64,000 bases of DNA, taken from positions 35,588,001-35,652,000 of the forward strand of contig OX597834.1 of assembly GCA_951406725.2 (NCBI GenBank), in the 5' to 3' direction. This DNA is from Octopus vulgaris (lineage: Eukaryota). Of this stretch, positions 1-57,240 are shown one piece after another (position 1 is the first letter of the stretch; the number at the start of each line of letters is the position of its first letter). The notes beneath the pieces are model-generated. The model was not told where the DNA came from, did not search any database, and worked only from the letters and a program-made list of their open reading frames with translations. The translations under genes were made by a program, and so were the position numbers.

Positions 1-463
1 AATTAAAAAAAGAACCAAAATTAAAAAGAAAAAATACACTATCAAAAACAGAAGTTCATTTGTTTAATGGCAGCAGATATTCAATTAATATGTCATGTTC
101 GGATTTATTTCAAAGAAAATGGTAAGGAAAAAAATGCATTTGTAAAGGGAATTGAAGTATATAACGTTTGAAAGGAAATTTAAAGGAGAAATTATGAGGC
201 AAAAAGAGAAACAAACTCGACATCTTTGCCTTTCTTATCATTCTTTGTTCTCATATCTTTCATCACTCTTTATTCTCCCGTTCTTTGTTTACGTAATGTT
301 TCCCTTTATTTATCTTCCTATCCATTCACTTTGTTTTGCATCCATTGGTACATCGATACTCATACACATAAGAAGCATATAATGCATATGTATATATATG
401 TGTGTATGTGTCTGTGTGTGTCTGTGCGTGTGAGTAAATATATGTCCCAAAACACACACGTGT

Positions 464-4532: not shown

Positions 4533-4858
4533 TGTACGTACAATGAAGTTATATAAAACACAAAAGTCCATTTATAAAAGCAGAAAGGAATATATACGTA
4601 CATACATTCATACATAATGCAATTGTAAATACATACATACGTATATACATACATACATGTATGTATATATGATTTACATGTGCCTATACATAGAAACATA
4701 TATATGCATATACAAGCATATATATGTATGTGTGTGCACGTTATGCCTATATATATGTATAAATATATACATATATATATATGGGTGTGTGTGTGTATGT
4801 ATACAAGAAGAAAGATAAGGGTATGTACACAAGAAGAAAGATAAGGGTATGTACTCAC

Positions 4859-55061
<50,203 letters not shown>

Positions 55062-55063
55062 CT

Positions 55064-56350
55064 GAGGACGGTGACAGAACAGTCGCGAATAGGGCAGCAG
55101 CGACAGCGGTGTGTTGTTGTTGTTGCGATCAAGCGTTTATGTGGAGTCGTGTAGAACCGTGAAGAATAGTACGATGTCATGTACAGCAGTGTAGAGTCGT
55201 ATTGGATAACGCGGTGTAATTTAGAGCAGAATGTAGCGTGTTGTAGATTGATGTAGAGCGGTGCAGCGTTATGTAGAGCAGGGCAGTGACGAATAGAATA
55301 ACGCAGTGTAAAAGAGTGTGATGTAGTATAGTATGGAGTATGGTGGTGTAGTTTAGTGTTATATAGTATGGTGTAGTTTCATGTAATGTAGTACAATGAA
55401 ATATGGGTGCGATGAAGTGTGGAACGGTGTAGATTAATGTTGTGTTGTTTAGGGTAAGGTAATGTGGTGTAGTGTTGTGTAGTGGGATGTAGCGGAGGTG
55501 TTTATTAGTGAAATGTAAGGTGGAAGCGAGTGGAGTAGTGGAGTGGTGTTTAGTGTGAGGTTGAAGGTAGCATTTAAATGTGCCGTTTGATTGTGACGTT
55601 TGAATGTGGAGTTTGTATGTGTCATTTGAATGTGGCGTTGGATGTGGTGTTGAATGCGGCGTTGAATGTGGCATTGGATGTGGTGTTTGAATGTGACGTT
55701 TGTATGTGACGTTTGAATGTGGTGTTGAATGCCGCGTTGGATGTGGTGTTGAATGAGGCGTTGGACGTGACGTTGAATGTAGCATTGAATGTGAAATTGA
55801 GTGTGGCGTTGAATGTGGCGTTGAGTGTGGCATCGAATGTAGCGTTGAGGGTGACGTTGAGCGCGGCGTTGAATGTGACGTTGGTGCAAACGTTCGTTTG
55901 ATATCAGATTGGCGTTGGTGTAAATGTTGGTTTGGCGTTAGCGTTAGCGTTGGAGCAACATCGGTGTGAGATCGGTTTAACGTTGATGCGAAGTTGTCGA
56001 ATCGGTTTGTGTGTGACGTTGATGTTTCGTCGAATATGACATTAAATCGGCATTGGTTTGGTGTTGATTGTTGATTCGATGGATGGAATATGAAAAACAA
56101 AGAAATGAATACATGAGTATATTAGATTATTAAGTAATACAGATATAATTATATTGTTTTTTTATAAGGAAAGCGTTTATAGAGAAAGAGAGAGAAAGAG
56201 ACAGGCAGACAAAGATAGAGACGAAGAGAGAGACATACACGTGCACAGACATTCATGCAGATACGTATTTGAATATAAATACAAATGTAAACACACACAC
56301 GCACACATACACATGCAGACGCGTGCGCACACACGCACACACAGTGTTAT
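55064..56350 (-). promoter_or_regulatory. Giant AG-exclusion zone with putative distant branch points (56113-56136) and polypyrimidine tracts (56092-56109, 56181-56233)
   Basis: No CT on the + strand (no AG on the sense strand) between 55064 and 56350, checked line by line. The function is inferred. Confidence 0.7.
55587..55885. repeat. Degenerate 12-13 bp minisatellite (TTGAATGTGGCG-like), roughly 24 units
   Basis: Visible tandem units; preceded by a degenerate (GTGTA)n pentamer tract at 55141-55560. Confidence 0.85.
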
Positions 56351-56984
56351 CTTCTCTCAGAACGTTACGCGTTACACTAATTTCCTTTCCCGAAGACATG
56401 CCAGACCCTCCGAAATTTCGTCAAATTTGGTACTGATGCGATGTTTTCAATATTTCCATGGCTTCTCTTTTTCGTCCCGCCAATAACTTTTCAATAATAT
56501 CTTAATATCAGTGATCATCTATCCATCATCCGTAGGACCTGGAGAAAGCCATAGACTGACTAAAACCGTGGTGTGGTATCGATCCCCAACTCTCGCCACC
56601 ATCGGAGGATAGCAAGATTTTATTCTAGCGTTGGTCTTCAAAAAATCTTTACATCCAGCAAATTCCAACATATCTCTGCGTGTGAGTGAGAAGGTCCAAA
56701 TCATACTATACAATAAAAAAAAATTTTATACAAGGTCAAGGGATCACGAACTGAGCAGGGTATTCCATAACCTCAGTAACATAGTGGACAAAGATGACAA
56801 CAGCAACTACAACAAGAGTTTTTGCTTATACTAAAACATTTGCGAGTGGAGAAGTAAAATCAGCCGTCACTCAAGAGCGAATGTAACTTGGTAACACGTG
56901 CGATGCTTTCGTTAATTGTTTTAGATGCCTACGTTGCCGGGAGCAAGCATAGATAGTTCATTGGCCCTTTACCCTTGATCCAGT

Positions 56985-57240
56985 AGCACATCTTGCTAAC
57001 ATCCGCTGGGCAGATAATTTCTACAACTCTGCAGTCTCTCTTCTCAATCCCGAATTACTTTATCGGGTCTATTGTGTTTTCATTTTATTGAGGTCCTCAT
57101 TGGGACATTGCACTAGTACTCCTTTATATTATGAGTGGATGTGGCTTCTACCATACTGTGGGTTCTTATTTCTTTGGCCTTGGGGTTATCCTTCCGACGG
57201 ATCTCATTAAATAGTGTTTCAGCTACAACATCATGTCTCA
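56985..57240 (-). mobile_element. Degenerate RLE endonuclease fragment
   Basis: KHNRPDK...VVEIICPADV, with stops and a frameshift. Confidence 0.5.

Follow-up and report, generated by a model that had tools for sequence, protein, structure and literature searches.

A kilobase-long AG-free zone ahead of an ankyrin-region exon of an octopus TRPC gene: a likely AG-exclusion zone with candidate distant branch points

The intron that precedes an ankyrin-region exon of an octopus TRPC3/7-like channel gene ends in 1,287 nt of sequence that is devoid of AG dinucleotides on the coding strand. It is a real, likely selected and extreme AG-exclusion zone, and a branch point more than 1 kb from the exon is probably used to some extent. 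The explanation that we favor, with middling confidence, is that the zone marks a distant branch point approximately 1.05-1.23 kb 5' of the CAG in use, with selection of the first AG as the 3' splice site and with a spacer that grew from AG-filtered repeats. A preliminary description of the window (the whole 64-kb stretch of DNA analyzed, G000:C21:35588001-35652000) had proposed such a distant-branch-point module and had added a regulatory role. The reading as a distant branch point with a repeat-grown spacer is the best supported part of that proposal, as the acceptor is used, the genomic backgrounds are exceeded and the U-rich tract is distal; the regulatory part is not supported.

Extent and composition of the AG-free zone

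The zone occupies the minus strand from the AG at 56352-56351 to the acceptor AG at 55063-55062, and the 1,287-nt run ahead of the CAG acceptor given in the preliminary description was obtained again on recounting (Table 1). The same holds for its base counts, which had been estimated by hand at about 130 G residues, none preceded by A, three GG and some 40 AG expected. In the 1,286 nt counted, 130 G, 3 GG and 19 GA were found with 0 AG against 39.6 expected, while the number of AA was close to expectation. CGA occurs 13 times and CAG is absent, and TGA occurs six times and TAG is absent, as compared to background CGA/CAG and TGA/TAG counts of 8326/15635 and 20578/15002, respectively.

The 5' edge of the zone is sharp. 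AGs are found at distances of 2, 1291, 1294, 1296, 1317 and 1325 nt, five of them packed into the 35 nt immediately past the edge; the first gap of at least 150 nt is far above the next one upstream. The next-longest AG-free runs within the window measure 546, 511, 368 and 345 nt. For the other acceptors of the gene, zones of about 17-175 nt had been described at nine sites; the size is correct (17-174 nt), whereas the window contains ten other acceptors. All 16 other acceptors located for the TRPC gene show AG-free zones of 17-174 nt. A recursive splice site was considered and rejected, as GT follows neither of the bounding AGs.

Table 1. Features of the zone and of the surrounding gene. Plain coordinates are positions in the window; branch distances are relative to the acceptor.
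Feature	Position	Strand	Remarks
Ankyrin-region coding exon, 332 nt, TRPC3/7-like channel	54730..55061	-	Donor GT at 54729; skipping causes a frameshift
CAG acceptor, first AG 3' of the zone	55062..55064	-	Phase 0; position common to molluscs, annelids and flatworms
AG-exclusion zone (likely), 1287 nt	55064..56350	-	3' end of the 17.3-kb intron (43.4 kb in the form without the 54-nt exon)
Weak proximal YUNAY candidates, -99 and -68	55128..55165	-	Predicted
Degenerate 5/10-mer C/A-rich repeats	55230..55576	-	Genomic look-alikes contain AGs
Degenerate 12-mer array, 25 copies, 73% matches	55577..55883	-	Organism D has ~100 nt less; AG-making variants absent
Two CTAAC motifs, -883 and -877	55935..55951	-	Only 5 U per 20 nt, no U-rich tract
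Best U-rich tract of the entire zone, -1052 to -1025	56086..56113	-	14 U per 20 nt; directly 3' of the YUNAY trio
Three YUNAY branch candidates, A at -1069, -1061 and -1053	56114..56130	-	Predicted; A at 56130, 56122 and 56114
CT tract, 20/20 pyrimidines	56181-56233	-	Downstream of -1227/-1215
Second candidate module, YUNAY -1227 and -1215, 13-U window and CT tract	56181..56291	-	Predicted
Upstream exon, 54 nt	G000:C21:35660447-35660394	-	Intron to the zone exon 17.3 kb
Second upstream exon	G000:C21, ends 35686449	-	43.4 kb from the zone exon
Start-codon exon	G000:C21:35880596	-	~237 kb from the zone exon

Comparison with genomic backgrounds

Sixty random 10-kb loci of the octopus genome (1.2 Mb of strand sequence) contained ten AG-free runs of at least 600 nt and a single run of at least 1000 nt, of the microsatellite type, with a maximum of 1116 nt. 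All the random runs of at least 600 nt are simple repeats, with a 6-mer uniqueness of 0.22 or less compared to 0.59 for the zone. Among 300-nt windows, AG-free examples numbered none of 165 composition-matched and one of 5141 complex windows; the zone corresponds to four such windows in a row. After masking of microsatellites the zone retains 1273 nt with 39.1 AG expected, and its closest competitors among 1.72 Mb of strand sequence were a run of 641 nt (1.3 expected AG) and another with 19.7 expected.

Exon flanks provide a second background. The upper-bound AG-free length at 80 octopus kinase and ion-channel exon flanks has a median of 76 nt and a maximum of 470 nt, and the maximum at 19 flanks of octopus TRP-paralogue exons is 279 nt. 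Sixty long-exon loci, scanned for long AG-free runs and not for acceptors, gave a maximum of 591 nt. A second long zone of the octopus genome was noted at a kinase exon (L239; G000:C30:17421018-17422785, minus strand), where 420 nt at the likely true acceptor are free of AG, 247 nt of them outside microsatellites.

The exon and the use of its acceptor

The translation of the exon at 55061-54730 is an ankyrin-region segment with 100% identity to an Octopus vulgaris protein labelled TRPC3-like. It is not the first exon of the gene; three coding exons were located further upstream (Table 1). Related mollusc, annelid and flatworm proteins change to diverse upstream sequence at the exon junction 55061, and the genomic orthologues have an acceptor there, which indicates that the acceptor position is ancient. 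No intron was found at the equivalent position in the four loci of TRP paralogues that were checked, as judged by open reading and the presence of many AGs. In gastropod and annelid orthologues (P0004, P0013-P0015, P0022 and P0055) several distinct N-termini join at the zone-exon acceptor, a pattern suggesting that alternative first exons may converge on it in other lineages.

RNA junctions into 55061, which had been put forward as a check, were found. Two contigs of run X14 leave the exon at 55064, and their mixed loose end matches two upstream exons in 30 of 30 letters, compared to only 20 or 24 of 30 for pairs that include the intron. Because the ends match both upstream exons, the forms that include and skip the 54-nt exon both splice into the CAG at 55062. 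A contig of organism B (run X19) also ends at 55064, and the 680-nt intron downstream of the zone exon is spliced in three of four runs. Runs X14 and X19 are labelled as probable RNA, none of the runs being recorded as RNA; the label is a guess with which the spliced joints agree.

No skipping of the 332-nt exon was seen in a search that began from that exon, a stretch ill-suited to reveal skips. This exon looks constitutive, the alternative exon being the 54-nt cassette upstream. The regulatory part of the preliminary proposal finds no support in this frame-critical exon of constitutive appearance, nor in a spacer that diverges as fast as its upstream flank. The cassette itself (L006:8394-8447, minus strand) is in frame and adds 18 residues directly before the first ankyrin repeat; it is present in Octopus database proteins and missing from four transcript-derived relatives and from all non-Octopus matches. 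Further upstream, the Octopus protein P0100 carries 11 additional residues ahead of the exon located at 43 kb (L009 ~4536-4575). Its match reaches slightly 5' of the AG at L009:4536, where the acceptor may be alternative or misassigned.

Candidate branch points and structure of the spacer

The positions first reported for the YUNAY cluster, the U-rich tract and the CT tract are all correct. The cluster had been placed near the far end of the zone; its distance of ~1.05 kb from the acceptor stands, but it does not mark the far edge, since the zone extends for some 220 nt further and holds an extra candidate at -1227. A stretch of 220 AG-free nt past the main cluster is equalled at 1.4% of random positions. 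The distal U-rich tract closes, at 56091-56097, with a U run followed by CAT, similar to an acceptor that lacks its G.

Near the exon, the zone acceptor has a proximal tract of 7 U per 20 nt, the poorest among the 11 acceptors in the window (10-17 in the others), and YUNAY is absent from -12 to -67. The nearest YUNAY of other acceptors of the TRPC gene is often located at -50 to -100, so that a missing YUNAY at -18 to -45 is not diagnostic.

It is possible, though on balance doubtful, that two sites are in use, with a proximal branch at -68 or -99 performing most of the productive splicing and a part-time distal module, for example a holding state, purging the AGs. The proximal YUNAYs are within the range typical for the gene, and the changes listed for organism D, a relative described below, leave them intact. 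Mixed use of distal and proximal sites is common in long human zones according to two reports (PMC2991248, PMC5378181), and such an arrangement would explain the AG purge equally well. The U-poor proximal tract speaks against it, and the total absence of AG along 1.29 kb suggests that much of the flux would pass through the distal site. We consider unlikely the stricter scheme of an obligatory branch 1.05-1.23 kb from the AG, in which the spliceosome would cross a kilobase of unstructured RNA derived from repeats and this long second step would serve as a timer gating inclusion of the 54-nt cassette.

No stable fold across the spacer was predicted (z +1.11; equal or better folding in 17 of 20 shuffles), and the predicted folding energy is -4.6 kcal/mol per 100 nt in the spacer versus -16.9 in the upstream flank. 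The spacer is thus predicted to be unstructured. In a search for long inverted partners within 20 kb, the hits listed comprised only GT/CT microsatellites located 5' of the branch cluster. Elsewhere in the window, a six-frame scan revealed a long near-palindromic stretch at 17640-17900, similar on both strands and possibly an intronic inverted repeat element.

Contig pieces of probable-RNA runs within the zone (X8, 55151-56045; X13 and X14, short), with none at 56140-56690, were considered as signs of a stop near the branch. They were set aside as evidence because the runs had been chosen by words of the zone, X8 lacks the zone exon and the ends vary between studies.

Divergence in related organisms

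Organism D (run X12) is ~6% diverged. Across 55065-55474 (410 nt) it displays 26 substitutions and 7 indels (31 nt), none of which creates an AG, and the same is true of one more substitution, three more indels and a 130-to-31-nt array replacement elsewhere in the zone. This comparison covers 27 of the 65 zone substitutions; the remaining 38 include all 19 in the branch-cluster piece, and 56176-56347 was skipped as repeat. The expected number of AG gains is 2.4-3.4 under neutrality (P 0.03-0.08) and 0.94 under the observed spectrum of changes (P 0.35), which makes for a weak test. Organisms B and C and a second sample of A contribute five differences in the zone, none of which makes an AG; a polymorphism at 56131 alters only the N position of a YUNAY.

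The divergence of the spacer pieces (6.3, 12.1 and 5.2%) is no lower than that of the upstream flank (2.9, 11.3 and 3.7%), indicating that the spacer sequence itself is not conserved. Orthologous loci of other animals have short AG-free zones, of 6-177 nt in 24 of 24 non-octopus loci, and the long zone is therefore lineage-restricted. These loci, not all of them independent, are 24 of 29 metagenome loci, five having been dropped as their match lacked the exon start; seven had less than 300 nt of upstream DNA.

Motif content and other functions of the zone

The zone differs from composition-matched background in more than AG. GG (observed/expected 0.23 versus 1.14) and GA (0.48 versus 0.88) are depleted, and CG is raised (1.64 versus 0.74). 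The depletion of GG and GA is explained by AG selection alone only in part, and the closed mutational route through AG together with low structure may likewise account for only part of it. The pattern favors avoidance of purine-purine motifs or of structure in an RNA with a role of its own (a platform for proteins, a stable intronic RNA or, for example, a 5' leader of an alternative form that starts at an internal promoter), an explanation that we nevertheless regard as improbable. The AG-free run stops exactly at the used acceptor, AG is at zero while GA and AA are not, and the two junction contigs seen come from upstream exons and not from the zone. The overall divergence of the spacer, 5-12%, is similar to the 3-11% of the flank, and no Rfam family was matched at its gathering score.

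The protein platform had been suggested specifically for Nova, through YCAY motifs, or hnRNP L. YCAY occurs 47 times in the zone against 56.2 +/- 4.9 in dinucleotide shuffles (196 of 200 reach 47), and CA-type motifs number 62 versus 66.3, so that neither proposal is supported. The 12-mer array is YCAY-dense by genome standards, its density being reached by 41 of 3960 random windows, which would favor a platform; yet its 18 YCAY compare to 20.8 in shuffles, and its length differs between species.

Two further candidates were rejected. A stop-free stretch of 314 codons (56121-55180) does not share the phase of the exon, is of low complexity and contains frameshifting indels in organism D, arguing against a coding role. 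Of known RNA families, there were three weak matches to miRNA models on the GT repeat, far under the gathering scores.

Repeats in the spacer

Six blocks of unlike construction make up the zone as a mosaic, and about half of it is degenerate repeat. Each block has 1.3-9.4 AG expected and 0 observed. A look-alike 12-mer minisatellite on C28 (L116:1190-2050) contains 27 AG in 860 nt, each of them arising where the second A of CAA has become G; that A is intact in 25 of 25 units of the TRPC array. The latter array, 27% diverged, has no AG-making variant against 4.56 expected from its other variants. These data are suggestive of AG avoidance within the array, in a test that is not independent, as the units share ancestry. 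The C28 array is followed, after ~200 nt, by a possible small exon.

The earlier caveat that expansion of AG-free repeats inflates the statistic was addressed by the six blocks, the masked count and the C28 look-alike, and a simple artefact of repeats does not account for the zone. An origin as a mere by-product of expanding AG-free repeats, unselected and with an ordinary branch near the exon, is very improbable: the repeat content, the random microsatellite runs of up to 1116 nt and the short zones of distant orthologues, which recall the repeat counter-example of PMC1431707, fit such an origin, but six unlike blocks, a diverged array that is AG-free where its look-alike is not and the low 6-mer uniqueness of the random runs do not.

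A transposon family as the source of the spacer was rejected after DNA searches with its two halves, which returned two weak matches each elsewhere, 69-78% identical and all simple repeats; since this search skips repeats, few matches are no proof of rarity. Immediately upstream of the zone, high-copy interspersed repeats are present at 56990-57210 and 56720-56950 in the window, and their contig depth is very high in RNA-like as well as DNA runs.

Comparison with known distant branch points

In vertebrates, verified distant branch points include PTB exon 11 (zone 381, branch -351) and GABBR1 exon 23 (zone 287, branch -275) (Gooding et al. 2006, PMC1431707). The same source gives a zone of 438 for nPTB, a zone of 590 with a predicted branch at -566 for Fugu PTB, and one false case caused by repeats. 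Mapped distant branches are described as 'up to 400 nt' away, with frequent mixed use (Corvelo et al. 2010, PMC2991248). The octopus locus shares with the PTB/GABBR1 class the long AG-free zone, the dense AGs beyond it, a branch motif and U tract toward the 5' end and use of the first AG. It differs in a candidate distance approximately three times that of the mapped cases, a branch predicted from sequence, and a spacer of C/A-rich degenerate repeat instead of a pyrimidine tract. Again unlike the vertebrate class, the cassette lies upstream of a constitutive-looking exon, the host is a mollusc and the zone is not kept in distant orthologues. On its sequence features the octopus zone would be assigned to the class of Gooding et al., to which it adds a longer zone, a C/A-repeat spacer, a constitutive-looking exon and a mollusc.

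The closest counterpart in length is an intron of human PTPRS (tyrosine phosphatase sigma), with a zone of 1126 nt and unverified candidate branches at -1079, -829 and -288; the zone of the mouse orthologue measures 229 (PMC1431707). Both cases combine a kilobase zone with several predicted branches and a much shorter zone in an orthologue. The PTPRS zone fills an intron of 1132 nt, whereas the octopus zone, which has a sharp AG-rich 5' edge, takes up the final 1.29 kb of an intron of 17-43 kb. A glycine receptor gene, considered as the holder of the longest human zone, was discarded, as the term is absent from PMC1431707, which names PTPRS.

Distal branch points have been proposed as holding states and, in human minigenes, contribute modestly when a proximal partner is present (Taggart et al. 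2017, PMC5378181). The octopus intron resembles these sites in its candidate distal site and tract, its involvement in an alternative choice and a possible proximal partner. Those sites are lariat-mapped and often conserved in sequence, in contrast to the non-conserved octopus spacer and its predicted branch. In yeast COF1, RNA structure brings the 3' splice site near the branch (PMC3239191). The octopus locus would likewise have a long branch-to-AG distance, but its spacer is AG-free and predicted to be unstructured (z +1.1), and bridging by a hairpin is thus not indicated. A search of titles and the beginnings of abstracts, with subscription papers outside its scope, found no literature on octopus branch points or on this TRPC intron.

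Proposed mechanism and implications

In the favored explanation of a distant branch point with an AG-filtered spacer, U2AF and U2 would assemble on a distal YUNAY and its U-tract, mainly at -1069 to -1053 and secondarily at -1227 with the CT tract. The first step would take place at the distal site with no need of an AG, and the second step would pick the first AG, ~1 kb further on, over an unstructured C/A-rich spacer. Should an AG arise in the spacer, up to ~1 kb of stop-rich sequence would be joined to an exon whose reading frame is critical, and the change would be purged. Because new AGs would be lost in this manner, insertions and expansions between the tract and the AG would survive only if AG-free. 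Lengthening of the spacer would then act as a filtered, largely neutral ratchet in a repeat-prone genome, and the timing with which the upstream 54-nt cassette is included or skipped may be affected as a by-product.

The reach of the second splicing step from branch to AG is an open limit. In the cited papers, mapped cases do not extend much past 400 nt, and for the human case of kilobase size there is only a prediction. The locus offers a natural substrate for this question: its edge is sharp, its candidate branches form a defined cluster, its acceptor is in use and spacer length varies among relatives. Such a distant module would escape gene predictors and variant scans restricted to the surroundings of exons. 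If the explanation is correct, repeat-rich genomes can displace the branch point of a constitutive exon by a kilobase, and ~13% of spacer substitutions would create a splice-disrupting AG. Cephalopods exhibit heavy A-to-I editing; in the stricter scheme considered unlikely above, the 53 CAA triplets of the zone would also represent latent acceptors if edited.
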